Source: an uncultured Bdellovibrio sp. (GTDB lineage Bacteria; Bdellovibrionota; Bdellovibrionia; Bdellovibrionales; Bdellovibrionaceae). From it: a DNA stretch of 59,059 bases. This document shows, piece after piece, positions 34,043 to 59,059 of the stretch. The notes beneath the pieces are model-generated. The model was not told the DNA's origin. It saw only the letters and a program-made list of their open reading frames with translations, and made no database searches. The stretch's first letter is position 1; each line of letters begins with the position of its first letter. The stretch lies in NCBI GenBank assembly GCA_964505225.1, contig CAZDHC010000001.1, forward strand, positions 1-59,059, read 5' to 3'. The translations under genes and the position numbers were made by a program.

Positions 34043-36313
34043 TTAACTATCCGTTAATCGAGAAACGCCGATGACTCCACGAATTTTTTGTAGGTCAAAT
34101 ATCACTTGATTCAATTGCTGAGTGTTCTTCACGCTCACATCAAAAGTCGCCACGGCTTTCGAATCCCTGGTGGTTCTAACTTGAGCATTGTGAATATTAA
34201 TTCCTTGGGTCGCAAAGGCCTCGGACATAGATTTTAACAAACCTGGCATATCTTGAGAGATCACTCGCACTCGAACAATTCGTTCGTGTCCAGTGTCTGC
34301 CGAATTGGTGTTCCACTCGACATCCACCTTACGAATTTGATCAAATTCAAAGGCTTTTCGGCAATCGGTTCGATGCACAGTGATGCCCCGTCCCCGAGTG
34401 ATAAACCCAACGATGGCATCACCCGGAATTGGATTGCAACACCTTGCATAGTGAACCAAAACATCGTCCATACCACTGACTGCGATCAATGAGCCTGATT
34501 TACGGGCCTTTTGCGTAGCTGACTTGAAAACTGTTTGCAGAAATGAGGTTTTGTTATCTTTAGAATCTTTTCCGTCTTTGCTGTCTTTTACTTCTTTTGA
34601 GTCATCAGACTGATTGACCAATTCTGGCGCCAGACGCTCTAGCAAAACACGTGGCTCTAACTTTCCATAACCGACTCGAACTAAAACTTCGTCGTCATCA
34701 TGGATGCCGTGGTCCTTTTTAAACTTTTCAAAATACTCGCCTTTTAAGTATTTTGCGGATGGTTGACCAAATTTTCGAAACTCTCTTTCGAGCAATTCTT
34801 TTCCAAGCGAGTGCGAACGCTTTCGTTGCTCTTCTTTTACAAAGGCACGGATTTTTGTTTTCGCCTTATTGGTGACGCAAATTTTTAACCAGTCTTTACT
34901 TGGAACCTGAGTCTTAGAAGTAATGACCTCGATGCTGTCACCATTCTGCAAATGGTATTTGAGCGGCACCATTTTACCGTTGATGCGGGCACCAGTGATT
35001 CGATTTCCCAACTCGGTGTGAACGGCGTAGGCAAAATCAATCGGAGTCGCGCCTTCTGGAAATTCGCGCACTTCACCTTTTGGTGTGAACACATAGATCT
35101 CGTGCTCGAACAAATCAGTCTTTACGGTATCTAAAAACTCGTCCGAGTTTCCGACCTGCTGATGAAGGGAAACTAAATCCTTCAGCCAATCAAACTGTTC
35201 AGACGTTTCGTCGGTAATGTTACGACCACGTTCTTTATAGCGCCAGTGAGCCGCGATTCCGCGCTCGGCGACCAGGTGCATTTCCTTAGTTCGAATTTGA
35301 ATTTCGATTCGTTCTCCACCAGGTCCAATCACAGTGGTATGCAAAGACTGATAGTGATTGGTTTTAGGCATGGCGATGAAATCTTTGAAGCGACCTGGAA
35401 TCGGCTTGTACAACGAGTGCATCAATCCCAAAACTTCATAACACTGGGATAACGAGTCCACTAAGACCCGAAACGCCAACACATCGTACACTTGTTCATA
35501 ATCAATATTTCGAGATTCCATTTTTCGATAAATCGACCACAAGTGCTTGGTACGCCCTTGAACTTCGAAAGCCTTGTGGCCTGCTTTGTTCAATTCGACA
35601 TTGATCATCTTTCGAACTTCTTCGATGTAGTTCGCTTGAACTTTTTCTCGCTGCTCAACTTTTTGTTTCAGCTGATAATACATATCCGGACGCAAATATC
35701 GAAAGCTCAAATCCTCTAGCTCGATCTTGATACTGCTGATACCCATTCGACTTGCGAGCGGACAGTAGATCTCTAAAGTCTCTTGAGCAATTCGCGCTTG
35801 TTTTTCATAGGGCATGTGATTGAGCGTTCGCATGTTGTGCAATCGATCTGCTAGCTTCACCAAAATGACTCGAACATCTTTCCCCATGGCCACGATCATT
35901 TTTCGAATGTTTTCGCCTTGGCGCTCGGTCGAAGTCTTAAACTGCATTTTTGAAATCTTGGTCACGCCATCAACCAGAGCGGCGATGGTCTCGCCGAATT
36001 CGGCTTTCAGGCTATCCACAGTCGCGTGAGTGTCTTCAACTGTATCGTGCAATAGTCCAGTGGCCACCGAGTCCAAGTCCAGCTTTAGGTCTGCTAAAAT
36101 CCCTGCCACACTGAGCGGATGAGAAATATAGGGTTCACCTGAACGACGAATTTGACCTTCGTGAGCGGCCTCGGAAAAATGAAATGCTTTTTCAATTAAT
36201 TTTAAATCGGCATTGGGAAAATACTTAAGAATCTTTTGATTCAAGTCTTCCAATGTCCGCAGTGGACGGTCTTCTATTTTATCAGATGTAGTTTCAAAAT
36301 CAAAGCCAGCCAT
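34043..36313 (-). CDS. spoT: Bifunctional (p)ppGpp synthetase/hydrolase (RelA/SpoT homologue)
   Basis: 756 aa. HD motif HPLSVAGILA...LLHDTVEDT, synthetase GRTKHLWSIYRKM, TGS and C-terminal ACT-like regions. Confidence 0.92.
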   Translation of the reverse strand: MAGFDFETTSDKIEDRPLRTLEDLNQKILKYFPNADLKLIEKAFHFSEAAHEGQIRRSGEPYISHPLSVAGILADLKLDLDSVATGLLHDTVEDTHATVDSLKAEFGETIAALVDGVTKISKMQFKTSTERQGENIRKMIVAMGKDVRVILVKLADRLHNMRTLNHMPYEKQARIAQETLEIYCPLASRMGISSIKIELEDLSFRYLRPDMYYQLKQKVEQREKVQANYIEEVRKMINVELNKAGHKAFEVQGRTKHLWSIYRKMESRNIDYEQVYDVLAFRVLVDSLSQCYEVLGLMHSLYKPIPGRFKDFIAMPKTNHYQSLHTTVIGPGGERIEIQIRTKEMHLVAERGIAAHWRYKERGRNITDETSEQFDWLKDLVSLHQQVGNSDEFLDTVKTDLFEHEIYVFTPKGEVREFPEGATPIDFAYAVHTELGNRITGARINGKMVPLKYHLQNGDSIEVITSKTQVPSKDWLKICVTNKAKTKIRAFVKEEQRKRSHSLGKELLEREFRKFGQPSAKYLKGEYFEKFKKDHGIHDDDEVLVRVGYGKLEPRVLLERLAPELVNQSDDSKEVKDSKDGKDSKDNKTSFLQTVFKSATQKARKSGSLIAVSGMDDVLVHYARCCNPIPGDAIVGFITRGRGITVHRTDCRKAFEFDQIRKVDVEWNTNSADTGHERIVRVRVISQDMPGLLKSMSEAFATQGINIHNAQVRTTRDSKAVATFDVSVKNTQQLNQVIFDLQKIRGVIGVSRLTDS

Positions 36314-46034: not shown

Positions 46035-46742
46035 TCAGCCGAACCTCATAAACCAGACACGGTACAAGGCCTCAAGGACAATACTTGAAGACATTTTACT
46101 TTGCCCCACTCGGCGGTCTTCAAAAATAATCGGTGATTCAACGCCTTTGCAGCCAGCCTTTAAAGCTCGATACTTGAGCTCAATTTGAAAGCTATAACCG
46201 TTCGACTTCACATCATCCAAATGGATTTTCCTTAAGGTCTCGGCCTTCCAAGCATTAAAGCCACCGGTCCAATCATTTAAAGGAAATCCTAAAATCAGTC
46301 GTGAATAAATACCGCCACCGCGGGAAATTATTTTTCTGATAATCCCCCAATTGACAGTGCCGCCACCATCGACGTACCTAGAGCCCACCGAGAAATCAGC
46401 GTTTTCGAGAGACTTCACTAGCGGAATTAAATCCACCGGCCGATGAGAAAAATCAGCATCCATTTCAACGGCAGCATCAAAGCCCCGTCCCAAAGCCCAT
46501 TGAAAACCGGCGATGTATGCTCGGCCAAGGCCTTCCTTGCCAGCGCGGGAAAGTAAATGCAGTCGCCCGTTGTTTTTTTGCATTTCTTGAACAACTTGAG
46601 CCGTGCCATCTGGCGAATTATCGTCAATGACCAAAACTTCAATGCTTAAATTGTCAGGGATTGTTTGCTCAAAGACAGCCGTGACTATTTGAGCAATATT
46701 TTCTTTTTCATTATAGGTCGGGATACACACTAAAATCTTCAT
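46035..46742 (-). CDS. GT2-family polyprenol-phosphate mannosyl/glycosyl transferase
   Basis: 235 aa. MKILVCIPTYNEKENI, DDNSPDGT and DADFSH motifs. Confidence 0.8.
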   Translation of the reverse strand: MKILVCIPTYNEKENIAQIVTAVFEQTIPDNLSIEVLVIDDNSPDGTAQVVQEMQKNNGRLHLLSRAGKEGLGRAYIAGFQWALGRGFDAAVEMDADFSHRPVDLIPLVKSLENADFSVGSRYVDGGGTVNWGIIRKIISRGGGIYSRLILGFPLNDWTGGFNAWKAETLRKIHLDDVKSNGYSFQIELKYRALKAGCKGVESPIIFEDRRVGQSKMSSSIVLEALYRVWFMRFG

Positions 46743-46762
46743 AACTGAGGGCGAATATAACC

Positions 46763-47212
46763 CTAAATTTGACGACTGACTAGTGATCCTTTTTGCCCAG
46801 ATTGAGCTTTTTCGATCAATTCGGCTTTTTGCTTGGAAATTGTCGGCAAATTAAGCGGTTTCGAAAGCAAAGTGGCCGGATTGTTTTTACGCTTGTCCAA
46901 TTTGATCTTAACCTTTTCTGCCGCCTTGACCGAGTCCTTCACATATAAAACCGGATCAAAACCGCACAAGGGACATTCGATCGTTAATCTCCATCTGACT
47001 TGAACAAATACTTCGGCGATTGCCAAAAAGAAAACAAATATTAAAGACACCCTTGGATCAAATTGCTGCCATATCACCATCATCACCGCCCCGGCCCCAA
47101 GAGCTGCACCCAAAATATCGCTGACCGAAATATTTCGCTTCGTATAAACCTTGCGCTCAGTCCGACAAAAGGCACAGTAACAGTCTTTGCGAGATGTAAA
47201 AAAAACAGCCAT
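46763..47212 (-). CDS. Hypothetical membrane protein with split CxxC pairs
   Basis: 149 aa. CYCAFC...two TM helices...CPLCG. Basic C-terminal tail. Confidence 0.5.
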   Translation of the reverse strand: MAVFFTSRKDCYCAFCRTERKVYTKRNISVSDILGAALGAGAVMMVIWQQFDPRVSLIFVFFLAIAEVFVQVRWRLTIECPLCGFDPVLYVKDSVKAAEKVKIKLDKRKNNPATLLSKPLNLPTISKQKAELIEKAQSGQKGSLVSRQI

Positions 47213-47290
47213 GTCTTATTATTGCAAAAAATTGGTCCAGTCGGAAAGGGCTGGTTTTGTGAAACTGGATTATTTTGTTATGATATTTGT

Positions 47291-47971
47291 ATGAAAACTT
47301 CAAATATCCTATTTTCACTAGTCGCAACCATCTTAATGTCCACAACCTTGGTCCAGTCAGCTGTTGCTGCCACTGACTATGAAGAAGTGAGCTACGACGA
47401 TTTGGTCAATCAGCTTCACGAAAAAAAGAACTCCTACAGATTCGAAGGCAACGACCCTTTTCAGCAAAATAAAATTCACGTTGGATTTGGATTGCTCACC
47501 TCAATGACTAACACCGAATACGACGGCGGAAAATCCATGAAATATCAGAATGGATTTCAGCTTTCACTGGGAATTGATTTGTTTTCGCCGATTTGGGCCG
47601 CAGAAGGAAATTTAAGAAATTTTGGCCAAGCGCATTCAGGAACCGAAACCAGATCGCTTCGCGAATTTGCATTGAAGCTGATGCATCGAGATCGATTTAA
47701 CGGAGCTCGCGACAGTCTGAACGGCGGCGGAAGCTTGGGATATCGCGCGGGCTTCGGAGTCGGCAATCGTTATTTACGAATTTCTGACGACATCAATGGA
47801 TTGGTGGTCAATGACAATACCCCGGCGATGGTTTTCTTTGGCGGCTTAGATGCCTATGCGAGCAAAAACTTTAGCATTGGAATTGAAACAGATTACCACG
47901 CATCGCTTGTTGGCAACACCGCCGACAAAGGCGCATTAGACTTCACCTTCCGCTTGGACACCTACTTTTAA
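47291..47971 (+). CDS. Putative small outer-membrane beta-barrel protein
   Basis: The track ORF 47063 overlaps the divergent gene. ATG 47291 gives the signal peptide MKTSNILFSLVATILMSTTLVQSAVAA. Alternating pattern and a C-terminal ...RLDTYF. Confidence 0.55.
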   Translation: MKTSNILFSLVATILMSTTLVQSAVAATDYEEVSYDDLVNQLHEKKNSYRFEGNDPFQQNKIHVGFGLLTSMTNTEYDGGKSMKYQNGFQLSLGIDLFSPIWAAEGNLRNFGQAHSGTETRSLREFALKLMHRDRFNGARDSLNGGGSLGYRAGFGVGNRYLRISDDINGLVVNDNTPAMVFFGGLDAYASKNFSIGIETDYHASLVGNTADKGALDFTFRLDTYF

Positions 47972-48648
47972 TGTTCGCTGGATTATTGATAGCCATTGCG
48001 ATCTTAAGCGCGGCAGTTCTTCACAACTACCTCCGGTCTCGCATTCATTCATTTGAAGACCTATCCCCAAACAGATTGATGACAAGGTATCCATTGGTCT
48101 TTGTCACCGGAAAAAGAAGTCTGTTCTATTTTCTTTCTTACTGGAACAAGATACCCGATTTTTTAGCTTCTTATGGTTATGAAGTCTACACGTTGCCCAC
48201 CCCTTGGCGAAAAAATCAAAAGGATTTTCTATTCAAATTTCTGACTCGGCAAAGTGAAAAAAATCAACCGATCCATTTGGTTTTTGACGAGTCGATTGAA
48301 ACCGAAATCACAGAACTTTTGGAGGAGCATTTCTTTCCGGCCCTGCAATCAGCCACTAAATTTACAGTTGCAAATCAGGCACGCCCCCAAAACTTAACTT
48401 CACCTTTGCGCTCAAGAACTAAAATTCCGATCGAAGAATTAGAGCTACCAATAGAGTCAAAGGTGGCCAAGCCACTTTTTTGGCGACTCCATTTGCTTGC
48501 ATCCCAACAGCCCGCTTGGATTTCACTGCAGTCTTTAGGAATTGAGTTGTTCGAAAAAACAAAAGGTCGCATCCTCGATAGGTGTCAGTTTTTGGCCGAG
48601 AAAGACTTGCTTCAAGGTCAACGTTCGAATGAATTGATTTTGAAATGA
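47971..48648 (+). CDS. Membrane-anchored lipase/alpha-beta-hydrolase-like protein lacking a recognisable GxSxG
   Basis: 225 aa with an N-terminal TM segment. YPLVFVTGKRSLFYF...YWNKIPDFLASYGYEVY resembles the lipase class-2 N-terminus. The expected nucleophile elbow reads IHLVFDESIE. TAATG-coupled upstream and ATGA-coupled downstream. Confidence 0.4.
   Translation: MFAGLLIAIAILSAAVLHNYLRSRIHSFEDLSPNRLMTRYPLVFVTGKRSLFYFLSYWNKIPDFLASYGYEVYTLPTPWRKNQKDFLFKFLTRQSEKNQPIHLVFDESIETEITELLEEHFFPALQSATKFTVANQARPQNLTSPLRSRTKIPIEELELPIESKVAKPLFWRLHLLASQQPAWISLQSLGIELFEKTKGRILDRCQFLAEKDLLQGQRSNELILK
48606..48630 (+). repeat. 25-bp direct repeat, copy 1 (inside the 3' end of the 47971 gene)
   Basis: CTTGCTTCAAGGTCAACGTTCGAAT matches 49415-49439 at 24 of 25 positions. 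Confidence 0.85.
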
Positions 48649-49394
48649 GTCTATTTCCGGTACAGCATTATATTCTATACACACTGCCTAGATCCGGAAG
48701 CACTCCGGTTATAAGAATTCTAGCAGAGGCACTTTATAAGGCCGAGTCTACTTTGTTCTTAGATGAATACTTCAATCCCGACTTTACTATTAACAGCCTA
48801 CCGACAGCATTTTCTACGGATGTAGCTCAAACTTTTCAAGTTAAAATTGGAACAACTAGTTTAAAGCAAAATGAAATTATATTCAAAGCTAGACTTCAGA
48901 TGCTATTCGAAAGCAAACAGAAGTATTTAATCAAAATTTTGCCCGATCAAGTTTTCGACCCAGGCGTTAGAAACTTTATTTTATCCAATAACAGAACTAT
49001 GTTTCTTTCTAGAAGAAATCACTTTCTTCACTTCATCAGCTATGCCTTATCGCTACAAACACATCGATATTACGAAAACAACGGAAGCCCCCATTGGACT
49101 GAGAAAATCACAATTAAAAGAACTGTATTTCGAAAATTTTGTCGTGAAATTTCCGAGCTAGAAGCTCTTAAAAAGATTCATCCTAAAACGCCCAATTTGT
49201 ATCTCGAGGACTTATTGAAGGGCACTGAAATCAAAATTCACGGCAACAAAATTCAATTCAATCAAGAGCTTGCCGATCTACACACTATTAAAACTGACAA
49301 TGGCGAACTACAACGTTATGTTGAAAATCTTAAAGAGGTCCAAAGTTGGTACCGCAAAAGTCCATTAAATAAAAGCTTCCCACTGGACCCTTAG
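48645..49394 (+). CDS. Sulfotransferase-like protein (Stf0 / P-loop sulfotransferase type)
   Basis: 249 aa. 5'-PSB-like YTLPRSGSTPVIRIL near the N-terminus. 3'-PB-like FLSRRNHFLHFISYALSLQT (the RRx5-6 S ... QT pattern seen in Stf0-type enzymes). By-eye assignment. Confidence 0.5.
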   Translation: MSLFPVQHYILYTLPRSGSTPVIRILAEALYKAESTLFLDEYFNPDFTINSLPTAFSTDVAQTFQVKIGTTSLKQNEIIFKARLQMLFESKQKYLIKILPDQVFDPGVRNFILSNNRTMFLSRRNHFLHFISYALSLQTHRYYENNGSPHWTEKITIKRTVFRKFCREISELEALKKIHPKTPNLYLEDLLKGTEIKIHGNKIQFNQELADLHTIKTDNGELQRYVENLKEVQSWYRKSPLNKSFPLDP

Positions 49395-49414
49395 CCTGAG
49401 TTTTCCGCAGGCCT

Positions 49415-49439
49415 CTTGCTTCAAGATCAACGTTCGAAT
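49415..49439 (+). repeat. 25-bp direct repeat, copy 2 (intergenic, upstream of the 49451 gene)
   Basis: CTTGCTTCAAGATCAACGTTCGAAT. In the equivalent frame it reads LLQDQRSNILRQ-TGA, and the TGA overlaps ATG 49451 as ATGA. Confidence 0.85.
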
Positions 49440-49450
49440 ATTCTTAGGCA

Positions 49451-50047
49451 ATGATCAATCCACAAATTTTGACAGAATGTCATGACGCTAAAGACTGCCT
49501 CATTCGCTACCTGAGAAACCCTGTATTAGAAATCAAAAATCTTCCTGATTGGTCTTGGCCTAAACTTATACTTTTCCACTCTGCGATCGCCGCGGTTTCA
49601 GGCGCATTGGCCGGCTTTGTTGAAAAGAAATTTTCCTTATCCATTTTGGGTGGATTTATACTTTCGCCAATTTTGACGTTAGTCTCCCTAGGTGTCGCTA
49701 CGGCGTTCTTCTACTACTGCTTTCAGATTTTTGCAGGACAAACTGTTTCGCTAAAAAAACTGTTTACCGTAACGATGTTTGCCAACTTTCCACAGTTGAT
49801 ACTACAAATAGTCGCTGGCTACGTTCCTCCCGTGACTTTGGTCGGCATGGCCTTTACCGCTTTCCTCTTGTTGGTAGGATTTGTAGAAAATTTTAAATTA
49901 GACCGAAAATTGACAGCCAAGTTCGTTGGCGGACTTTACGCGGTTTTTGTTGTCATGTGGCTATGGAACCAAGCTAGCTCGGTTCGTTTTGATAAAAGCT
50001 GGAACAGCGAAAAGATTAGCGCTCCTGAAGTTCGATTGGGTGAATAA
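49451..50047 (+). CDS. Polytopic membrane protein, Yip1-like
   Basis: 198 aa with a soluble N-terminus of about 35 aa followed by 4-5 TM helices. Confidence 0.45.
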   Translation: MINPQILTECHDAKDCLIRYLRNPVLEIKNLPDWSWPKLILFHSAIAAVSGALAGFVEKKFSLSILGGFILSPILTLVSLGVATAFFYYCFQIFAGQTVSLKKLFTVTMFANFPQLILQIVAGYVPPVTLVGMAFTAFLLLVGFVENFKLDRKLTAKFVGGLYAVFVVMWLWNQASSVRFDKSWNSEKISAPEVRLGE

Positions 50048-50165
50048 TAAGCGCATCCTAGATGAATGGCCAATTAGATTCAATTCCCCACAACTGGACC
50101 TGACAACATCTTGATATAAGACGGAAAATTGATGAACAGAAATTTATTTTCTTCATCGAGGATCT

Positions 50166-50393
50166 ATGCGCACCTGGAGTCTTGTCAATCTACAACAAAA
50201 GAAAATTTGGATTGGCCTCACTGAAAAAGAAATATTGGTCGCCATTACATTCATGGGAAACGAGCAAGCTCATCTTCTTGTGCACAAACAAGGTGACCAG
50301 CAATGGTCACCAATCGCGGTCCTAAAAGAAATTTATCAACGCAACACTGATCTTTTTGATCCCAACTTAAAACCACATTTTAAGGGCCCCTAG
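50166..50393 (+). CDS. Small cytoplasmic protein, GYF_2(DUF4339)-like
   Basis: 75 aa. KIWIGLTEKEILVAITFMGNEQAHLLVHKQGDQQWSPIAVLKEIY resembles the bacterial GYF_2 pattern (W..g...e.l......G.i...tlV...G...W.P...v.Ei). Its stop lies 1 nt before the OMP gene start. Confidence 0.4.
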   Translation: MRTWSLVNLQQKKIWIGLTEKEILVAITFMGNEQAHLLVHKQGDQQWSPIAVLKEIYQRNTDLFDPNLKPHFKGP

Positions 50394-50394
50394 A

Positions 50395-51807
50395 ATGTTT
50401 GTAAAAAACAAACCACTATGTTTGATTTTAATGACTGTCATTTCAAGCCAAAGCCTGGCTTACGTTGAACCAGTTTCTTTAAAGAAACTGGTTGAAGAAG
50501 TTGCTCCCCTCTATCAACAAAGTGACCAAAATAGATCCCTTGAGAAATCTCGACAGTCCATCATCTCGACAATAAAAAGCACCCAAAAAGATCAGCCATG
50601 GTCTATGCAGGCCTCCGCCAATAAATCTGAAGAGCTATTGACGACTGCAAATCAGCCGGGTCTATTTAAAACAGATGCCTCATTGAATTACGGCAATAAG
50701 AATGGCTTTAAGGGAGTTCTCTCCGCAACTAATTACGCCTACACCGATTATGTGGCCGCTGGAAACTACCTCAAAGACACTGTCAGTTTAACTTTTAGCC
50801 AAGACATAATCCAAGGTTACAAACATCCGACAGTGCAAAAACTGGCCGACGAGTCCCAGGAGTTTTCAGGAAAATCATCATTGGCTTCACTGCAGGGAAG
50901 CGCTCGCGATCAACAGTTAGCCATGGTCAATTCTTCGTTGAGTCTATATCTACAGACATGTTTACGTAGAGATTTAGAAGTCACCTTGAATGCTCTGAAG
51001 GAAGCCTACGAAGCCTCACGCGTACAAGTCGACATGAGACAAATTTCAATGAAAGACCACCTTTCAACTGTAAATTTGCGCGACCGCTTTACGATCCAAG
51101 CTGCTCAGATTGATCTTCGCATCAAACAAATAACGGCTCAATTGCAACAATATTCTTTTGAAGTTTCCGAGAAAGCAAAGAAGTATGTCGACAACATTCA
51201 AAAATGCGAAATACCCGAGGTCTTAGATTCCTCACCTTACAACAACAAACCATTTACCGAAAATTTTGATGTTATCACCCCAGACATTGCTTCCATTCAA
51301 TTGAGCATCGAAGCCAAGAGAAAAGATATTGAATCCCTGGATGTCCGCAGCATGGCCTCACTTAAGCCTTCAATTGGCCTTACTCACAACGACAAAATCA
51401 ATCCTTACAAATCATTTAACGAATGGAACGTGGGAATTACCTATTCTTATACTTTTGAAAGTGACCGCCCTAATTTGGTAAAAAAATCTAAACTGGAAGA
51501 CTTAGAAAAGGCAAAACTCGATATTCTGGCTAAAAAAGATTCTACAGCTAGCGAACTCAATTCATTACAAGCACAAATGCAAAATCAGCTTAAGACATAC
51601 CCACTTATCATAGTTGGCTATAAAAATAGTTTAACCTTGTTGGATCTTTTAAGAAAGCAGTCGAACCTAGGAATGACTGATGCCCTTTCACAGGCCAATG
51701 CTTATCAATCTTGGTATGATCGAATTAATGAAATCCGAAACGCTGTTAACGATTATGCCACAGCGAAAATGCGCTACCGCTATTTGACTGAAAACAAGAG
51801 CCCGTAA
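50395..51807 (+). CDS. TolC-like outer-membrane efflux/secretion channel protein
   Basis: 470 aa with a signal peptide (LCLILMTVISSQSLA). Long helical, Gln/Leu-rich segments in two repeats. Sits upstream of the HlyD and ABC genes. Confidence 0.6.
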   Translation: MFVKNKPLCLILMTVISSQSLAYVEPVSLKKLVEEVAPLYQQSDQNRSLEKSRQSIISTIKSTQKDQPWSMQASANKSEELLTTANQPGLFKTDASLNYGNKNGFKGVLSATNYAYTDYVAAGNYLKDTVSLTFSQDIIQGYKHPTVQKLADESQEFSGKSSLASLQGSARDQQLAMVNSSLSLYLQTCLRRDLEVTLNALKEAYEASRVQVDMRQISMKDHLSTVNLRDRFTIQAAQIDLRIKQITAQLQQYSFEVSEKAKKYVDNIQKCEIPEVLDSSPYNNKPFTENFDVITPDIASIQLSIEAKRKDIESLDVRSMASLKPSIGLTHNDKINPYKSFNEWNVGITYSYTFESDRPNLVKKSKLEDLEKAKLDILAKKDSTASELNSLQAQMQNQLKTYPLIIVGYKNSLTLLDLLRKQSNLGMTDALSQANAYQSWYDRINEIRNAVNDYATAKMRYRYLTENKSP

Positions 51808-51926
51808 ATCGAGCCAGACCAAAGACCAAGATCTCGCGAAACATAACGAAAAATTACCTGTCTAGAATAGCCTCACTTTTCTAGCATCACATTGACGAAT
51901 TCTACCCGCTCAATCAAACTTTTAAA

Positions 51927-53141
51927 GTGGAAAAGAAAAGTGAAATATCATGGTCAGGTCTCGATTATCTCAACCGTTGGATCCCATTTGGATCCTATTA
52001 TTTTTTGGCTGGCTTCCTTGTTTTTGCAGTGGGAATTGGAATTTTCTCAGCAATTGTAAAAACCGCGATCACAGTTGATGCTCAAGGCAAACTCAACAGT
52101 GAACAGAAGCCAGTTCCAATCAAATCTCCAGTTGCATTTACTGTGGATCAAATTTTTATCAAAGAAAATGAGTTGATCAAAAAGGGAACTAAAATTCTAT
52201 CTTCAAAAGATTCGATCACTCCAGAGCAAATGGCTCTAGTTGAAAGATATCGCAATCTGCTTTTGTCGGTCGTAAAAGATTTCAAAGGCAATCCAAAATG
52301 CAGCGAATGTCTTTACAAACTTCAGCAAACCACATTGATCTATGGCAATTTCACTCAACAGCAAGATATCATTGAAATCATCGGCTCCGTGCAAACAACA
52401 TCGCTTGATTTGAAACGACAAATTGAAGAATCACAAAGTATAGGCTTACAGACCGCCGACGTTCGCCACAACATTGCAATCAATGAAGGCAAAATTGCAA
52501 AAATTAAACAACAACGAGCTGAGAGAATTCTTGCACGCGAATACGAACAACTCACTCAAGAACTAGTGGCACTTAAAACTCGGATTCGTACAAAAGAACA
52601 AGAGAACCTTTTGAATCTTAGAAGATCCGCGGGGCAACTTGAAGCTCAATTGAGTGACTTTCAATCGAAATTAGATAAAAAAACCAAAACCTACGTCATT
52701 GAAGCTCCCTTTGACGGTGTCACCTCAAGTGTCAAAATTAAGGGTAAAGGTGAAATCTTATCTCCGGGCGAAGTCATTCTTGAGCTGATTCCTGCGGGAT
52801 CGAAGCTGGTTTCAGAACTGACGATCACCGCGAAAGACATTCCCCTGATCAAAGCAGGAATGGACACAACGCTCTACTTTGATGCCTTTCCAGAAGCTGA
52901 ATACGGAACGATCAAAGGAACCGTTGTGAGCATAGATCGTTTTGAGGTCCCCGCTGCCAATGGACAAACTGATGTTTCATTTCGAGCCCAAGTTTCGATG
53001 GAGTCTCAGGGCTTTACTAAAAACGGTAAATCCTATCCATTTCTAGTGGGCATGACGACACGGGGAAAAATCTTAGTTGGGTATCAGACTCTATTGCAAA
53101 CTGCCATCAATCAACTTTTCCACATTGGAAACGAATTCTAG
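51927..53141 (+). CDS. HlyD-family membrane fusion / periplasmic adaptor protein
   Basis: 404 aa with a GTG start. No in-frame ATG precedes the TM anchor FGSYYFLAGFLVFAVGIGIF. Lipoyl-like segments (IKSPVAFTVDQIFIKENELIKKGTKIL ... IEAPFDGVTSSVKIKGKGEILSPGEVILELIP) flank a coiled coil. Confidence 0.8.
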   Translation: MEKKSEISWSGLDYLNRWIPFGSYYFLAGFLVFAVGIGIFSAIVKTAITVDAQGKLNSEQKPVPIKSPVAFTVDQIFIKENELIKKGTKILSSKDSITPEQMALVERYRNLLLSVVKDFKGNPKCSECLYKLQQTTLIYGNFTQQQDIIEIIGSVQTTSLDLKRQIEESQSIGLQTADVRHNIAINEGKIAKIKQQRAERILAREYEQLTQELVALKTRIRTKEQENLLNLRRSAGQLEAQLSDFQSKLDKKTKTYVIEAPFDGVTSSVKIKGKGEILSPGEVILELIPAGSKLVSELTITAKDIPLIKAGMDTTLYFDAFPEAEYGTIKGTVVSIDRFEVPAANGQTDVSFRAQVSMESQGFTKNGKSYPFLVGMTTRGKILVGYQTLLQTAINQLFHIGNEF

Positions 53142-53149
53142 AGGACAAC

Positions 53150-56125
53150 GTGGTTCGCTTCGCTCCCGAGTTGAAATCTTTTATCGAAAAAGAAGGACAA
53201 TCGTTTCAGGTTGAGCGTCAGCAATTGATTTGCACTCAAGGCGAGAAAGCCGAGTTTCTGGTTTATGTTCCCAACGGAACTTTGGAAGTCCGAATTGCGT
53301 CAGGCCGAATCAATGAAGAAGTCATCGTAGACTGGATCCAAACAGATGAGTGCTTTTTTCTGTTAGACGGACTGCAAGTCAAAAATTATCCCGCCAACTT
53401 ATATGCAACTCAAGCTGTGAACCTCATCAAAGTTCCGATTGAAAAAGTGCTCACGTTTTTAAGTGGAAATCCGGATTTGACCAGACGCTTGACTCAATTC
53501 TATTCCAATCCTGGATTGCGATCAGCAGTCAAAAGAATATCCAATTCGAGCCGCGCTCGTTCCGAATTTTACTTTAATATGACTGAGTTTGACTCGTTCA
53601 AAACCGAAGCAGTCAAAATTAAATCCGGAGATATTCCGAATTGGAGCCAAGGGCTTTACATCGTCAACGCTGGCCGGGCACGGTTGAGCATGACCAAAGA
53701 ACAAAAAAAAATTGAACGATTTTTAACGATTGGCGACGTCTTCTCGGTCGAAGATTACATAGGTAGAAATATTGAACTGGAAATTGCCGAAGATCTTGAC
53801 CTGTATAAAATTGAATCTACTGCGATCACAATTCTTTACAATCAATTGAAAGTACTTTGGACTCAAGACTTGCCTATTCGAGACTTCAGTTCAAACTCAA
53901 ATACGACAACGGCTAAGATACCCGGTGCTCAAATTGAAGTGATCAGAAAATGGTATGCGGGCTTCAAAGTTCACGAGCTAATTACAACCACCGATTCATC
54001 TGAATTTGACACCATCTCGCTTTACAATGCTTTCAAACTATTGGGAGCAGAAATCCCACTGGACGAAGCTCATCAGCTAGCAACTTTTGCGGAAGAGTCC
54101 GACTTGGACTTCAATTCCTTAGCTGATATTTTCGAATCTAAAAGCTATTCAGTGGAATTTATTCAGTACAATTCATATCAAGATATCAGTCAAGTTGCGA
54201 TCACCGTTTGGAAAAATCAAATCTGCTTAATCATTCGTTGCGAATCCGGTCGCCTTTTCTATTTCGACCCTAGCCAAGGCGTGCAAAAAATCAAAGACCC
54301 AAGTTTTCTGACAGCAATTTCTGCGCGGATTTTACTTATTTCTCAAACGCCTGGAATTCAAGAATTGCTAAACTACTCTCAGGATCCCAAAATCAATGAT
54401 TTGTCTCTTCGTAAATTTATCTATCAGAATCTCGAAAAACACCGTGGTTTGCTTTGGAATCTACTTGGTTTGGCTTTTATCTTAGGGGTCATCACCAGCA
54501 CAAAAGGTATCATTTTCCAAAAGGTCATCACGCAAGTGTCCAGTCTACAGGAAACATCTGTTGTTCTGGGATTTGGTTACGCACTCATCGCACTTGGTGG
54601 ATTCTACTTTTTAATCAACATTTTGTTCACCTTGTTGACCGAATACATTCGTATCTACCTCTCCAATCGACTCAAGACTCTCCTTTTAAAAATTAACTAT
54701 TTTTCATCAAACTTAAATAGATCTATCGCCAATCGAAGCATGTTCTTAAAAAGAATTGATTCTTTGGATGGCTTTTCAAATCAATTGATTTCAAATCCAA
54801 TCAATCTGATTAAATCGGCAGTCAGCCTGTCCATCATGTTGATTTTTTTGGCGACAATTTCGGTGAAGTATTTCTTAATCTACGCAGGCTTCATCGGCAT
54901 TGGAGTTATGATTATAATTCGTTTCATTCGAAACGTAACGGCCAATTGGGCCCGCATGTCAGCCAGCGGGGGCCCAAAAGAAGGAGTGCTATTCCCAGAT
55001 TTTGCCAAAGCACTTTATTCCAGCGATTCAAAGGTTCAACTGAACTACTTCAAAGAAAAAACAGAAGTTGGAATCTGCGAGCAAAACGAAGCCTCCGCGA
55101 CCTATCAAAATAATCAAAAGCGCACACTATTTCTTTTAAAGCTCCTTGGACTCTGTTTCTACAGTTTAGTTTACTACTATGGAATCATCGAGTCTTTTAA
55201 TTCACCAGAGGCCGCAGCCGCAATTTCTGGCTTGCTGATTTATCTCGGTTACGTCTACGGAGAGACCAACCAGTTTTTCAACTTATTCTCTAGCTTTGGT
55301 CAATGGTCAGAAAGCTTTCAACAATTGCAATCGTTCTTTACACCTAATGAAATCTACAATGGATTAAAAAACCACCCAAGGCACGTACGACTGAATGGCA
55401 AAATCCGTTTTGATGGCGTGTCCTTGAAATACCCCGAAACTGTCATGCCTGCGATCAGTCAGGTGTCAGTGACAATTCAACCTGGTGAATTTGTGATCAT
55501 CGTTGGCAAATCAGGATCTGGAAAGTCCACATTTGTTAAGCTCTTAGCTCAAGAGCTTGCTCCAAACGGCGGAAGAATTCTATTTGACGAGCAAGAAAGT
55601 CGAAATCTTTCCCCATCCTTACTTCGTTCCCAAATATGCATGGTCAACCGTCGACCTGATTTTTTTCCCGGAACTGTTCGCGATAACATTCTGGTCAATC
55701 GCCAAATGAACACTTGGATGTTCGACAATGCCTTAAAAATATCCTCGATTGCCTCCAATCCGAAAACCATAGCTCGCATTTTAGGCGTTGAGATTGATCA
55801 ACAACAACAGGGCCTTTCGTCTGGCGAAAAACAAATGGTAGGAATCGCCCGAACTGTCTATCAAAATCCTAGAATCCTTATTTTAGATGAAGCCACTTGC
55901 TACCTTGATGCCAAATCAGAAATTGAAATCATCGACAATTTATATCGGAACAAGAAAGATAAAACCATTGTCCTTGTGACTCACCAGCTGGCACTTTCAA
56001 AGTACGCAGATCGAATTTTAGTTTTCAAAGATGGCTTTCTGGCCGAATCAGGAACTCATGATCAACTCCTGCGCGCAGGTAAAGAATACGCAGAACTCTA
56101 TCGCTCGAAAGGGGGCTTGGATTGA
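53150..56125 (+). CDS. ABC exporter half-transporter: two cNMP-binding-like domains, a C39-like (non-catalytic) domain, TMD and NBD
   Basis: 991 aa with a GTG start preceded by AGAGGA. CAP-like signatures (CTQGEKAEFLVYVPNGTLEV; GDVFSVEDYIGRN). The C39-like region lacks Cys and His. Six predicted TM helices. Walker A GKSGSGKST, signature LSSGEKQ, Walker B ILILDEAT, H-loop VTHQ. Confidence 0.8.
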   Translation: MVRFAPELKSFIEKEGQSFQVERQQLICTQGEKAEFLVYVPNGTLEVRIASGRINEEVIVDWIQTDECFFLLDGLQVKNYPANLYATQAVNLIKVPIEKVLTFLSGNPDLTRRLTQFYSNPGLRSAVKRISNSSRARSEFYFNMTEFDSFKTEAVKIKSGDIPNWSQGLYIVNAGRARLSMTKEQKKIERFLTIGDVFSVEDYIGRNIELEIAEDLDLYKIESTAITILYNQLKVLWTQDLPIRDFSSNSNTTTAKIPGAQIEVIRKWYAGFKVHELITTTDSSEFDTISLYNAFKLLGAEIPLDEAHQLATFAEESDLDFNSLADIFESKSYSVEFIQYNSYQDISQVAITVWKNQICLIIRCESGRLFYFDPSQGVQKIKDPSFLTAISARILLISQTPGIQELLNYSQDPKINDLSLRKFIYQNLEKHRGLLWNLLGLAFILGVITSTKGIIFQKVITQVSSLQETSVVLGFGYALIALGGFYFLINILFTLLTEYIRIYLSNRLKTLLLKINYFSSNLNRSIANRSMFLKRIDSLDGFSNQLISNPINLIKSAVSLSIMLIFLATISVKYFLIYAGFIGIGVMIIIRFIRNVTANWARMSASGGPKEGVLFPDFAKALYSSDSKVQLNYFKEKTEVGICEQNEASATYQNNQKRTLFLLKLLGLCFYSLVYYYGIIESFNSPEAAAAISGLLIYLGYVYGETNQFFNLFSSFGQWSESFQQLQSFFTPNEIYNGLKNHPRHVRLNGKIRFDGVSLKYPETVMPAISQVSVTIQPGEFVIIVGKSGSGKSTFVKLLAQELAPNGGRILFDEQESRNLSPSLLRSQICMVNRRPDFFPGTVRDNILVNRQMNTWMFDNALKISSIASNPKTIARILGVEIDQQQQGLSSGEKQMVGIARTVYQNPRILILDEATCYLDAKSEIEIIDNLYRNKKDKTIVLVTHQLALSKYADRILVFKDGFLAESGTHDQLLRAGKEYAELYRSKGGLD

Positions 56126-58626
56126 GCTACTCTCCCGAAGCCTTCATCCCAAAAAGTCTTTTTAGTGCTCTCCCAAAAGAATCTGTGATTGCACTTCTTA
56201 AGAATTCTAAGATTGATCAATACGAAGCGGACGAAGAAGTTCGAAAACCAAAGCCCGGCGAAGAACTGTTATTTGTCGCTGAAGGTGAAGTCTCTCTATG
56301 CGATATTCGAAACCCCAGAATTGATATTCAAAATTTGACCATGGGAAAAAGCATCGAGCTGAATAAGTATTTTGCTCAAGGTGAATGGCAATTTTACTGG
56401 AAAGCAAGAAATAGCGTCAAGATTTTACGATGCCCTTGGGCTGCCATTGTTGAACTATTGAAAGCGAACCAAGTTTATGGCAACTATTTGGCCCGCATCT
56501 CTGCAGCTCCGGAAATTCAAAAATTCAATCGAATCCTGCGGCAGTTTGGAATTCCAGCTGAAAGTCGAATTGCTTTCATATCCTCTTTGCAACGTGGAAA
56601 CTTTCAACAGGTCTTTGCCGACTGGAATGATCGTAAATTTGTGATTGTTTCATCAGGACGTTTACGCCTTAATTGCTATTTGAACGCGGGAAAAAACTCG
56701 ATTCTAGAGCTCCAAGGTGGCGATGACATCCTCATCGATTTGCGCTCAGAAAACGTTTCATTGGAATTAATCACCCCTGGGGACGCATGGTTTGTCCATG
56801 AAAAAAGTTGGCTGCAATTAAAAGATCATAGTTCTATGATCGACTTTCTAAGCCTTTACGAGAAAAAACACACTCGCAGGCCCATGCAAATCAAAGACAA
56901 CTTCGGACCAACCCAAAATGCCACTTCAATACCTTTGCCAAAAAAAGAGAAGCCTAAAGTCAGTTTGGACATCAATTCAGCGGTCCTCTTTGCAGGATCC
57001 ATGATTTTAATTACCAGCGCTCTGGCCATGGGCCTGTCTTTCATTTCCAGTCTTGTGAACCGAATCACTTTTGACAAGGTCTTAGTCAATAAAGACGGAC
57101 AGCTGGCATTGATCGTAGTGCTAGCCAGTGGAATTTTAAGTTTAGCCACTGAAAGTATTCAGAACAATGTAACCAAGGTGACTGAGTACTTGGCCAAATC
57201 TCATAACCTAAAAAAGGTTTCAAGTTTTCTCAACCAGCTTGTCGGAACAGCTTCTCAATACTTTGAGTACACCAAAGAATCCGAACTGATCGAGCAATAC
57301 GAGTCCTATACCGAATTTTTGCAAACACAAGTTCGAGTCAAATTTGAATTTCTAAAATGGATCTTAGGATATGCCATAGCTTCATTTTTATTCTATTTTT
57401 TAAGTCCAAAACTATCATGGGTTATCATAGTTTCCGTCTTGTGGCTGATTGCCTTTTCTTTAATTTCAGAGAAAATCCTAGAACATATCAAATGGAAGAA
57501 AGAAGAAGCAAAAAAGGATCATTACGAAAACGCCTATGATTTAACTAGTTTGATGCCTTCCTATAAAGCGCTCAACCTTTGGGCGGTGGTTCGCTCGCAT
57601 TTTAGCAAAACTCTAAGTCGACTGGATTTTTTAACTTACGTTGAGACAGTAGCTAAATCGATTGAAACTCAAGCTTTAGAATTTCTAATAGAATTTTACA
57701 AACTCGTCATTCTATTTTTTGCAGTCCTCCTTTTCACTCGAGGACAAATCACTGTTGGTTTGGTGATTTCTTTACCCGTCATTTTGGGTACTTTCTTAGG
57801 GCAACTCCGAAAGTTTCACATGGTCACACAGATGTATGCTCGCCTCATATCGTTAGGAAAAACGAGTATTAGTCCTCAGCAAATACCAAAAGGCGTGGAT
57901 CGTTTTCCAGCCCCTGCCGGACAGAAAAACTGCTTGGAAATTCAGGGCCTCAATTTTTCTTACCAAAAATCCAAAGGAATCTTTTCGCTTTCTAACATCA
58001 ATTTGAGTATTGAAGAAGGCGAAAAAGTCATTGTCCTGGGACCTAGTGGAAGTGGAAAATCAACACTCTTAGGCTTACTGGCCGGCAGCATTTCAACTTC
58101 TGTTCCAATTCGAAAAAGCGTGGAAATTGAAAATCAAATTTTAATGCCTCAGAATGGAATTTTGTTTAGCGGAACTTTACAACAAAATCTAACCGGGTTT
58201 ATAGAAAATATCGAATTTGAACAGGTTCAGAAGACTTGTGCCGAGCTCGATTTGACGACACTCATTGAGCGACTTCCGAACAACTTTCAAACTAACATTC
58301 AGGCCCAAGGCGCTCAATTTTCTGAAGGCCAAAAACAACGGATCCAATTGGCTCGTCTATTTTTCAAAAATTACAAACTATGCTTTTTAGATGAAGCCAC
58401 TTCGCTTTTGGATCCGGTTAGTGAACAGCGGATTTTGGCGCAAATTTTTCAAAGATACCAAAGCCAGACAATTCTATTTGCGACTCAAAGAAGCCACATT
58501 GTTCCCTATTTCAATAAAATTATTTTTATGGTCGACGGACAAATTGCTGAAATGGGATCTCATGCTGAACTCATTAAAGCTCGAGGACCTTATTTCGACT
58601 ATTTCTGTGCTCAAGTTAGAAATTAA
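56122..58626 (+). CDS. ABC exporter half-transporter: two cNMP-binding-like domains, TMD and NBD (no C39-like domain)
   Basis: 834 aa. TTG start overlapping the upstream TGA, preceded by AAGGGGG. CAP-like GEELLFVAEGEVSL and FVIVSSGRLRL. Walker A GPSGSGKST, signature FSEGQKQ, Walker B LCFLDEATS. The H-loop position reads ATQRSH. Confidence 0.8.
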   Translation: MSYSPEAFIPKSLFSALPKESVIALLKNSKIDQYEADEEVRKPKPGEELLFVAEGEVSLCDIRNPRIDIQNLTMGKSIELNKYFAQGEWQFYWKARNSVKILRCPWAAIVELLKANQVYGNYLARISAAPEIQKFNRILRQFGIPAESRIAFISSLQRGNFQQVFADWNDRKFVIVSSGRLRLNCYLNAGKNSILELQGGDDILIDLRSENVSLELITPGDAWFVHEKSWLQLKDHSSMIDFLSLYEKKHTRRPMQIKDNFGPTQNATSIPLPKKEKPKVSLDINSAVLFAGSMILITSALAMGLSFISSLVNRITFDKVLVNKDGQLALIVVLASGILSLATESIQNNVTKVTEYLAKSHNLKKVSSFLNQLVGTASQYFEYTKESELIEQYESYTEFLQTQVRVKFEFLKWILGYAIASFLFYFLSPKLSWVIIVSVLWLIAFSLISEKILEHIKWKKEEAKKDHYENAYDLTSLMPSYKALNLWAVVRSHFSKTLSRLDFLTYVETVAKSIETQALEFLIEFYKLVILFFAVLLFTRGQITVGLVISLPVILGTFLGQLRKFHMVTQMYARLISLGKTSISPQQIPKGVDRFPAPAGQKNCLEIQGLNFSYQKSKGIFSLSNINLSIEEGEKVIVLGPSGSGKSTLLGLLAGSISTSVPIRKSVEIENQILMPQNGILFSGTLQQNLTGFIENIEFEQVQKTCAELDLTTLIERLPNNFQTNIQAQGAQFSEGQKQRIQLARLFFKNYKLCFLDEATSLLDPVSEQRILAQIFQRYQSQTILFATQRSHIVPYFNKIIFMVDGQIAEMGSHAELIKARGPYFDYFCAQVRN

Positions 58627-58638
58627 AAAGGAAGAAAA

Positions 58639-59059
58639 ATGGAATTTAGAAAGAAAAGCTATTTCATTCACTCGCCGAAGTTCCAAATCAATTTGAATAA
58701 TTTGGCATTAGACGAGGCTCAGACGGTTTTAACTTTTCTTCCTCCACAGGCACTTCCAGAAGTCTTTATTTGCAATAGTTTAGAAAAAGTATGGCAGCCT
58801 TATCCAAATCAAACTGAACTTAAAGCGAACTTCGAGCCTGCTAAGGATTTAAAGACTCCCCCAATTCCACAGCCGGCCGCCGCTGGCCCTCAAGCTCCTG
58901 CTGGAACGCCTCCACAACAAGGTGCGCCTCCGCCACAACAACAGCACCCTCGCCCAACGCCTCCACAACAAGGTGCGCCTCCGCCACCGCACCAGCACCC
59001 GCGCCCAATGCCTCCACAACAAGGTGCGCCACCTCCACAGCAACAGCAACCTCGCCCAA
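58639..59059 (+). CDS. Pro/Gln-rich tandem-repeat protein with a GYF_2-like N-terminal domain, 3'-truncated by window edge
   Basis: Absent from the track (no stop in the window). ATG 58639 follows AAAAAGGAAG. My translation is MEFRKKSYFIHSPKFQINLNNLALDEAQTVLTFLPPQALPEVFICNSLEKVWQPYPNQTELKANFEPAKDLKTPPIPQPAAAGPQAPAG followed by (T/M)PPQQGAPPP(Q/P)(Q/H)Q(H/Q)PRP x3. The minus-strand ORFs 58841.. and 58849.. are shadows. Confidence 0.65.
   Translation, partial: MEFRKKSYFIHSPKFQINLNNLALDEAQTVLTFLPPQALPEVFICNSLEKVWQPYPNQTELKANFEPAKDLKTPPIPQPAAAGPQAPAGTPPQQGAPPPQQQHPRPTPPQQGAPPPPHQHPRPMPPQQGAPPPQQQQPRP
58906..59058 (+). repeat. 51-bp in-frame tandem repeat, three copies visible (58906, 58957, 59008), continuing off the window
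   Basis: ACGCCTCCACAACAAGGTGCGCCTCCGCCACAACAACAGCACCCTCGCCCA and two near-identical copies. Locally GC-rich relative to the window. Confidence 0.9.

Follow-up and report, generated by a model that had tools for sequence, protein, structure and literature searches.

Does an exporter locus in an uncultured Bdellovibrio sp. encode a type I secretion system (T1SS) whose pump is built from two different halves, each governed by sensor-like domains at its own N-terminus? The locus occupies positions 50,166 to 59,059 of contig CAZDHC010000001.1 (assembly GCA_964505225.1), and the whole stretch that was analysed, 59,059 nt long, is referred to here as the window. In this locus, genes for a TolC-like outer-membrane channel and a HlyD-type periplasmic adaptor are followed by two different ATP-binding cassette (ABC) genes, here named ABC-A and ABC-B, the products of which appear to begin with domains resembling cyclic nucleotide monophosphate (cNMP)-binding domains. 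The explanation that we favor, with a probability of roughly 0.6 for the whole of it, is a single operon, probably starting with a 75-aa open reading frame (ORF), which encodes a tripartite exporter composed of the channel, the adaptor and an ABC-A/ABC-B heterodimer with regulatory N-termini. The features of the locus, including the transmembrane domain (TMD) and nucleotide-binding domain (NBD) of each ABC protein, are as follows.

50166-50393 (+): 75-aa ORF without a family match, probably the first gene of the operon, ending 1 nt before the outer-membrane factor gene

50395-51807 (+): outer-membrane factor of 470 aa, TolC-like (PF02321), its N-terminus resembling a signal peptide

51927-53141 (+): periplasmic adaptor of 404 aa, a membrane fusion protein of the HlyD family (HlyD_3, TIGR01843, PDB 8dck)

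53150-56125 (+): ABC-A, 991 aa, with a GTG start and the ribosome-binding site AGAGGA

53150-53551 (+): ABC-A residues 1-134, cNMP-binding-like domain 1 (PF00027, hhalign, CRP/NtcA matches in the PDB)

53552-53935 (+): ABC-A residues 135-262, cNMP-like domain 2, probable and weakly marked (PF00027, 16.3 bits)

53936-54454 (+): ABC-A residues 263-435, C39-like domain (CLD) without catalytic residues (PF03412 at 17.3 bits, TIGR01846, hhalign)

54455-56125 (+): ABC-A TMD and NBD (PF00005 at 97 bits; motifs from a MAFFT alignment and a hydropathy scan)

56122-58626 (+): ABC-B, 834 aa, with a TTG start within TTGA

56122-56550 (+): ABC-B residues 1-143, cNMP-binding-like domain 1 (PF00027 at 14-17 bits, hhalign, AlphaFold2/Foldseek)

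56551-56970 (+): ABC-B residues 144-283, beta-rich with a helix after it; may be a degenerate cNMP-like domain 2, unproven (similarity to ABC-A domain 2)

56971-58626 (+): ABC-B TMD and NBD, without C39 or CLD (PF00664 at 34.5 bits, PF00005 at 75.8 bits)

58639-59059 (+): 5' part of a Pro/Gln-repeat ORF that runs off the window end, a candidate cargo or accessory protein (translation; no Pfam match)

Gene order and spacing were exactly as described in the original prediction, which had been made by a model from the DNA letters alone: the coordinates of all six ORFs were confirmed, together with the 1-nt gap, the 4 nt (TTGA) shared by the ABC-A and ABC-B genes, and the 12-nt gap between the ABC-B stop and the start of the Pro/Gln-repeat ORF. 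The proposal of a T1SS-like exporter with its own TolC-like outer-membrane protein and HlyD adaptor also held, through matches to PF02321, HlyD_3 and 8dck. The outer-membrane protein reached 25.4 bits against PF02321 OEP (cutoff 22) over residues 324-465 only, which is one of the two expected repeats, and a PDB sequence search with it returned no match; its predicted identity as a TolC-family outer-membrane factor is modestly supported. The adaptor scored 60.6 bits against PF13437 HlyD_3 (cutoff 22.2) and 107 bits against TIGR01843 (E=1.2e-30, under the cutoff of 208.65), compared to only 38 bits against the RND_mfp model. Its best PDB sequence match was the HlyD chain of the HlyB/D complex (8dck_C, E=1.7e-17), with LipC (5nen) also among the closest, and the hydropathy scan placed a single N-terminal transmembrane helix at residues 26-44.

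The original prediction had further given both ABC proteins an N-terminal extension of 250-290 residues in front of the membrane domain. This length was right for ABC-B, the membrane domain of which begins at about residue 285, and too short for ABC-A, in which about 435 residues precede the first transmembrane helix in the hydropathy scan. The additional length reflects a C39-like module that follows the cNMP-like domains of ABC-A and had been overlooked; a search with PF03412 (Peptidase_C39) gave a weak match in ABC-A, at residues of about 263-435 (17.3 bits, E=0.004), and none in ABC-B. Consistent with this, the alignment of TIGR01846 (HlyB) to ABC-A begins at residue 319, and hhalign aligned the region collinearly to four C39 domains over 123 columns (P=0.006). 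In ABC-B, TIGR03375 aligns from residue 295 to model position 154, with no C39 region by this NCBIfam alignment.

In front of this module, whole ABC-A matched PF00027 with 34.7 bits (cutoff 27.5) in two stretches. When domain 1 (residues 1-134) was scanned alone, the PF00027 score was 27 bits (E=4e-6), hhalign against nine cNMP domains gave a probability of 95%, and the top 21 PDB sequence matches were all CRP/NtcA proteins, all in register. The assignment of this domain as cNMP-binding-like, as judged by sequence comparison, is solid. Domain 2 (residues 135-262) scanned alone gave 16.3 bits (E=0.01) and an hhalign P of 0.011, and its sole PDB sequence match was a Crp/Fnr protein at E=1.9, so that a second cNMP-like domain is probable here and weakly marked.

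For ABC-B, domain 1 (residues 1-143) reached only 14-17 bits against PF00027, hhalign aligned it to the cNMP profile over 110 columns (P=0.003), and PDB sequence searches with each half of the extension found nothing. Two AlphaFold2 models were compared. The second of them was built from a five-sequence alignment of ABC-B, the ABC-A N-terminus and the N-termini of three metagenomic cNMP-PCAT proteins (PCAT, peptidase-containing ABC transporter), and had predicted local distance difference test (pLDDT) scores of 75-93 over residues 1-140 and of less than 50 beyond residue 159. With this model, Foldseek returned 560 matches in the PDB at E<=1e-3 (best E=1.7e-8), and the top 50 were all proteins with a cyclic nucleotide-binding (CNB) domain (PKA-R, PKG, CRP). 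The first model, made from the ABC-B sequence alone, gave no significant Foldseek match, and about 11 of its top 50 non-significant matches were CNB proteins; the order of strands and helices was alike in both models. Taking domain 1 of ABC-B as a CNB-fold domain is therefore a reasonable reading of the modeling. Residues 144-283 showed a collinear similarity to ABC-A domain 2 (z=2.5, equalled by 2% of shuffles), and a second cNMP-like domain at this place is unproven. Thus, where two cNMP-binding-like domains had been proposed for each ABC protein, the first one stands in both, firmly in ABC-A and reasonably in ABC-B, while the second is weak in the former and unproven in the latter.

What might these domains bind? 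In an alignment with CRP, the phosphate-holding residues G71/E72/R82/S83 correspond to F/L/Y/P in ABC-A domain 1, and in ABC-B domain 1 the profile alignment leaves a 12-column gap across the phosphate-binding cassette, which is thus shortened. None of the cNMP-like domains, as aligned, keeps the canonical cassette (Gly-Glu ... Arg-Ser/Thr-Ala), which makes classical binding of cAMP or cGMP, and with it a role of these nucleotides as ligands of the exporter N-termini, unlikely. The same loss argues for regarding the cNMP-fold domains as degenerate structural modules, used for docking of cargo or chaperones or for dimerization of the half-transporters, and not as sensors, in which case export would be constitutive or regulated at the transcriptional level only. 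The weak PF00027 scores of all four domains point the same way, as does the absence of detectable relatives of the N-termini: it suggests that they evolve fast, as surfaces specific to a partner would be expected to. Many domains of the CRP/FNR family, however, sense non-cyclic ligands without a classical cassette. Further, in HetC of Nostoc sp. PCC 7120, a cNMP-C39-ABC exporter, the equally atypical cNMP region binds GDP, GTP and ppGpp in vitro (ppGpp with a Kd of 59 uM), cAMP and 2-oxoglutarate do not stabilise it, and codons 2-278, which encode the N-terminal region, are indispensable in vivo (PMC10986499). The N-terminal regions of ABC-A and ABC-B together differ by 6 synonymous and 3 nonsynonymous codons from those of a second strain described below, which is mild purifying selection over few sites and does not discriminate between the two views. 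On balance we consider purely structural modules unlikely, yet worth serious attention.

The explanation that we favor takes HetC as its model for the cNMP-fold domains at the N-termini: lying in the cytoplasm, they would regulate export in response to a small ligand. As the residues that bind the cyclic phosphate are missing, a non-cyclic nucleotide ((p)ppGpp or GTP) or another metabolite would be a more likely ligand than cAMP or cGMP. A more specific scheme can be drawn, in which up to four CNB domains, two on each half-transporter, sense a nucleotide alarmone or second messenger, e.g. (p)ppGpp, and thereby license the export of a dedicated non-RTX cargo, possibly the Pro/Gln-repeat protein, by way of a non-cleaving C39-like dock. 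In this detail the scheme is speculative and, taken as a whole, rather improbable.

Whether the two ABC proteins work as one pump was approached through their NBDs. ABC-A scored 97 bits and ABC-B 75.8 bits against PF00005, and PF00664 was above its cutoff for ABC-B only (34.5 bits). The two proteins are 25% identical, over the NBD only. A MAFFT alignment of both with six other exporters revealed an intact Walker A and Walker B Asp-Glu in each of them. In ABC-A, the Q-loop Gln is replaced by Arg, the signature is LSSGE and the H-loop His is intact; in ABC-B, the H-loop His is replaced by Gln, the signature is FSEGQ and 11 residues are deleted before the Q-loop. Heterodimeric exporters with one degenerate ATP site are well known (TAP1/TAP2, TM287/288, LmrCD), and in such exporters, TAP1/2 for example, the degenerate site has lost the switch His in one subunit and meets a deviating signature from the partner. 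The low NBD identity, the complementary defects and the 4-nt gene overlap are in line with the original prediction of two different half-transporters that form a heterodimer. Since the defects are complementary and the genes overlap, we infer that an ABC-A/ABC-B heterodimer is the most likely arrangement. By analogy with TAP1/2, one ATP site would then be catalytic and the other degenerate, the latter being formed by the Walker motifs and H-loop Gln of ABC-B together with the LSSGE of ABC-A.

The pair could instead be two independent homodimeric exporters that share the adaptor and the channel, one of them HlyB-like and handling protein, the other handling a different substrate. Neither protein lacks any part of its TMD or NBD, Walker A and the Walker B Asp-Glu are intact in both, and related systems with a single ABC gene and a HlyD gene each exist (L002 and L086, both described below). 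An ABC-B homodimer, however, would lack the H-loop His at both sites and an ABC-A homodimer the Q-loop Gln at both, while complementary defects are what is seen in TAP1/2 and TM287/288. In addition, the 4-nt overlap suggests stoichiometric co-translation, the substrate-docking C39-like domain is present in ABC-A only, and the arrangement of two ABC genes is conserved in NHLP-type systems. Two separate homodimers are thus a distinctly unlikely solution.

As for the substrate, the C39-like domain of ABC-A offers one lead. In both the MAFFT and the hhalign alignments, the oxyanion Gln is replaced by Thr and the catalytic Cys by Phe; the catalytic His has no equivalent, its place being taken by Gln in the MAFFT alignment and by a gap in hhalign, and the DP(A/S) motif is retained. 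By these alignments, residues of about 263-435 form a putative dead C39-like domain of the HlyB kind. If the analogy with HlyB holds, this domain would serve as a docking site for an unfolded protein or peptide cargo, which it would leave uncleaved. The alternative of a non-protein substrate (lipid, glycolipid, polysaccharide or small molecule), with the dead C39-like domain as a relic, may draw on the catalytic death and weak conservation of that domain, on the lack of a recognisable protein cargo in the window and on a glycosyltransferase gene 3.4 kb upstream on the opposite strand. It may also draw on the whole-protein PDB matches of ABC-A, the best of which are lipid or drug exporters of the ABCB type, though the NBD dominates this ranking; when the TMD-NBD part of ABC-A was the query, mostly eukaryotic ABCB proteins came up through the NBD, which is uninformative. 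Against this alternative, the dead C39-like domain of HlyB is functional and needed for cargo binding, the adaptor is nearest to T1SS HlyD and LipC and not to the RND/MacA type, and both ABC proteins find their best NCBIfam matches among T1SS and bacteriocin exporters: TIGR03375 (T1SS LssB) gave 205 bits with ABC-A and 164 bits with ABC-B (cutoff 693), and TIGR01846 (HlyB) 199 and 153 bits (cutoff 725). We regard a non-protein substrate as very unlikely, and a protein or peptide as the probable cargo of the exporter.

Candidate cargo genes were sought in the window. A regular-expression scan found no RTX nonapeptide (GGxGxD) in any frame of the window, and a similar scan, which is a crude test, no double-glycine leader in its six frames. 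The 75-aa ORF has no Pfam or NCBIfam match, transmembrane segment, Gly-Gly leader or RTX motif. The Pro/Gln-repeat ORF contains, at 58905-59059, three copies of a 51-nt (17-aa) Pro/Gln-rich tandem repeat with 89% identity, the units reading PPQQGAPPP(Q/P)QQHPRP(T/M); it has no Pfam match, the part within the window has no signal peptide or transmembrane segment, and a metagenome DNA scan with it returned nothing. A small domain that by eye seemed common to the 75-aa ORF and the N-terminus of the Pro/Gln-repeat ORF was rejected, as BLASTP found nothing and the Smith-Waterman score was under the shuffle mean.

How new, then, is this exporter? In the searchable literature, HetC is the only ABC exporter with a cNMP domain for which there is any biochemistry. 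Similar to ABC-A, it is a protein of about 1000 aa in which some 280 residues of cNMP type at the N-terminus lead into a C39-type domain, followed by a TMD of six helices and an NBD, and similar to the system in the window it has no gene with a Gly-Gly leader nearby; its cargo is unknown (PMC10986499). HetC differs in its active C39 domain (C347/H420), in having no adjoining adaptor or second ABC gene and in being cyanobacterial, whereas in ABC-A the Cys and His are replaced by Phe and Gln, HlyD and outer-membrane protein genes stand in the operon, and the partner ABC-B also has a cNMP-like N-terminus. The N-terminal regions from the window had no detectable sequence similarity to HetC-type proteins in a library of 1.84 billion proteins. 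A closer match in gene order came from a metagenomic 994-aa protein (P0010, from L002/L003) with tandem PF00027 (64.5 bits, 2 stretches), C39, TMD and NBD, directly followed by adaptor and OEP genes. Systems of this type differ by a single ABC gene and an intact C39 Cys, and the ABC-A N-terminus matched P0010 in BLASTP with E=2e-4 over 93 residues only. Public cyanobacterial records also bear the product name 'cyclic nucleotide-regulated ABC bacteriocin/lantibiotic exporter'; on the plasmid AP018283.1 of Chondrocystis sp. NIES-4102 (L086, 8386-11148), a gene with this name is followed by a HlyD gene and is the single ABC gene. The encoded protein has an extension of roughly 200 aa before C39 and no PF00027 match at E<=0.001, so that the Pfam model lends no support to the product name here. 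The view of the original prediction that nothing comparable had been characterised must accordingly be given up, in the light of HetC (PMC10986499), of the existing product name and of the double-cNMP C39-ABC protein of L002 beside HlyD-like and OEP genes.

Two further families were compared, NHLP/Nif11 systems and the hemolysin exporter. NHLP/Nif11 systems comprise a HlyD-like gene and two ABC genes, just one of which has an active C39 (Haft et al. 2010, PMC2887384). As in the window, two different ABC genes come after the adaptor gene and a C39-type domain is confined to one of them; the second ABC protein (P0046), similar to ABC-A, is about 990 aa long, and its long N-terminal extension is accompanied by a degenerate C39-like stretch. 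The original prediction had pointed to the two NHLP exporter models, and both ABC proteins fell far under the cutoffs: ABC-A and ABC-B reached 186.7 and 149 bits against TIGR03796 (cutoff 853.3) and 157.2 and 117 bits against TIGR03797 (cutoff 709.4). TIGR03794 on the adaptor gave 40.9 bits (cutoff 156.2). With these three equivalog hidden Markov models (HMMs) under cutoff, an inactive C39 and its own outer-membrane protein gene, the system differs from NHLP/Nif11, and a Pfam scan of the two small ORFs that flank the exporter genes recognised no Nif11 or NHLP precursor. The extension of the second NHLP ABC protein (P0046, TIGR03797) was considered as a cNMP-like direct parent and rejected, as it had no Pfam match and an hhalign P of 0.65. 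A textbook Nif11 cluster was encountered at 5017-12964 of L004 (Logan SRR26937321), with three Nif11-type precursors, an adaptor, a C39-ABC protein (724 aa) and a TIGR03797 ABC protein (987 aa); the latter has an N-terminal extension of roughly 295 aa without a Pfam match or cNMP signal, and then a degenerate C39-like stretch.

E. coli HlyB-HlyD-TolC shares the tripartite construction, a dead C39-like domain in the ABC protein and a homologous HlyD adaptor with the system in the window. It differs in that HlyB is a homodimer without cNMP domains, the RTX cargo is encoded in the operon and TolC is encoded elsewhere, whereas the window has two different ABC genes with cNMP-like N-termini, the outer-membrane protein gene in the operon and no RTX motif. 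TAP1/TAP2, TM287/288 and LmrCD resemble the pair in their dissimilar half-transporters, with one NBD lacking the switch His (as in ABC-B) and a deviating partner signature (as in ABC-A), and differ in having neither outer-membrane partners nor cNMP-like domains, and also in that the other site deviates too in the window. Because its scores are far under the model cutoffs and the catalytic Cys and His are gone, we did not file the exporter as a PCAT or NHLP member; by analogy, its nearest counterpart in the way it works would be a T1SS of the HlyB type that bears regulatory heads like those of HetC. Its kind is already known, and it is a very divergent form of the theme of cNMP-domain ABC exporters and T1SS. 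What is unusual is the presence of sensor-like domains on both halves, the dead peptidase domain, the outer-membrane protein of its own, with which a single operon encodes all the envelope-spanning partners, and the orphan sequences.

The locus was compared between two strains, the second of them represented by a Logan contig from SRR13608703 on which it is present with 98.7% DNA identity and all reading frames intact. Between the strains, there were 22 synonymous and 2 nonsynonymous codon differences in ABC-A and 7 and 1 in ABC-B, the outer-membrane protein gene had 2 synonymous and 1 nonsynonymous difference, and the 75-aa ORF was identical. The exporter genes are under purifying selection, and the reading of the locus as a pseudogene or a decaying region was rejected on the strength of 29 synonymous versus 3 nonsynonymous differences in ABC-A and ABC-B together and of intact frames in two strains.

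In the search for relatives, an exhaustive phmmer run with ABC-A residues 1-440 against 1.84 billion representative proteins returned only the protein itself and one weak multi-cNMP protein (E=1.5e-4). Word-indexed searches with ABC-A and with the P0010 N-terminus gave NBD-level relatives or nothing, and such a search with ABC-B residues 1-600 gave only the query itself. ABC-B was not found in 185,579 species genomes, although these included metagenome-assembled genomes (MAGs) with 83% GspE identity, and we infer from this that the exporter locus is lineage- or strain-specific. In a metagenome scan with the neighbouring DEAD-box helicase, the best identity was 51%, and tblastn found no shared neighbours.

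The strain comparison also drew attention to the genes upstream. A 249-aa ORF at 48645-49394 (+), without a Pfam match, differs between the two strains by 34 synonymous and 39 nonsynonymous codons; all amino-acid changes lie within the first ~120 codons, and the strains do not differ at all in the pair of ORFs immediately upstream (47222-48648). The pattern suggests a recombined or mosaic tract, lying about 800 bp upstream of the operon. Farther upstream, at 46035-47212 (-), a GT2 glycosyltransferase gene has 23 and the adjacent 149-aa ORF 19 synonymous differences, with zero nonsynonymous ones, a block of locally high divergence under strong purifying selection, the neighbours of which show 0-3 differences.

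The remainder of the window is ordinary chromosome, with an ACIII-like complex, a type II secretion cluster, RelA/SpoT and MutL, and its GspE is 83-84% identical to proteins of Pseudobdellovibrionaceae/Bdellovibrio MAGs, which marks the host as Bdellovibrio-like. The GC content is 0.40-0.415 over 48001-58000, which covers the exporter and the genes just upstream, compared to about 0.43-0.46 in most of the window, and this lower GC would fit an accessory region. Scanning for promoters and terminators revealed sites no more frequent than in shuffled sequence. The RelA/SpoT (p)ppGpp synthetase/hydrolase gene lies at 34043-36313 (-), 14 kb upstream of the exporter; nothing points to a functional link, and the gene is of interest only since ppGpp is an in-vitro ligand of the HetC cNMP region.

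Several observations weigh against the tripartite exporter with regulatory heads. No cargo was identified within the window, and the adjacent Pro/Gln-repeat ORF is incomplete at the window end. Every family HMM score of the exporter proteins is far under its equivalog cutoff, and protein, genome and metagenome searches found no orthologue for comparative support. On the side of the sensor domains, the support for ABC-A domain 2 is weak, and ABC-B residues 144-283 had no HMM or PDB match and a pLDDT of less than 50. The single-sequence AlphaFold2 model of ABC-B residues 1-300 was unusable (pLDDT 41.5), and the alignment-based model is not fully independent and partly circular, because the alignment held known cNMP proteins. 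With the cassette absent, the N-terminal domains may bind no ligand whatever. Finally, the assignment of the degenerate ATP site is not clean, as both sites deviate.

The post-translational on/off control of ABC-driven protein and peptide exporters is poorly understood, and the physiological ligand of HetC is also unknown. If the improbable scheme with up to four alarmone-sensing CNB domains is real, it would mean direct post-translational, ligand-level control of a T1SS, exerted on both halves of the pump, in a predatory bacterium; we know of no T1SS for which such control has been demonstrated. The value of the locus is limited by the facts that its kind is already present in annotation, that no cargo is identified and that the orphan sequences come from one sample series, and generalising would need other examples. 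Within these bounds, with its sensor-like domains on both halves of a probable heterodimer and its non-cleaving dock, it would be a compact system in which to study how ligands control type I secretion, and it belongs to a predatory lineage for which the timing of secretion matters.

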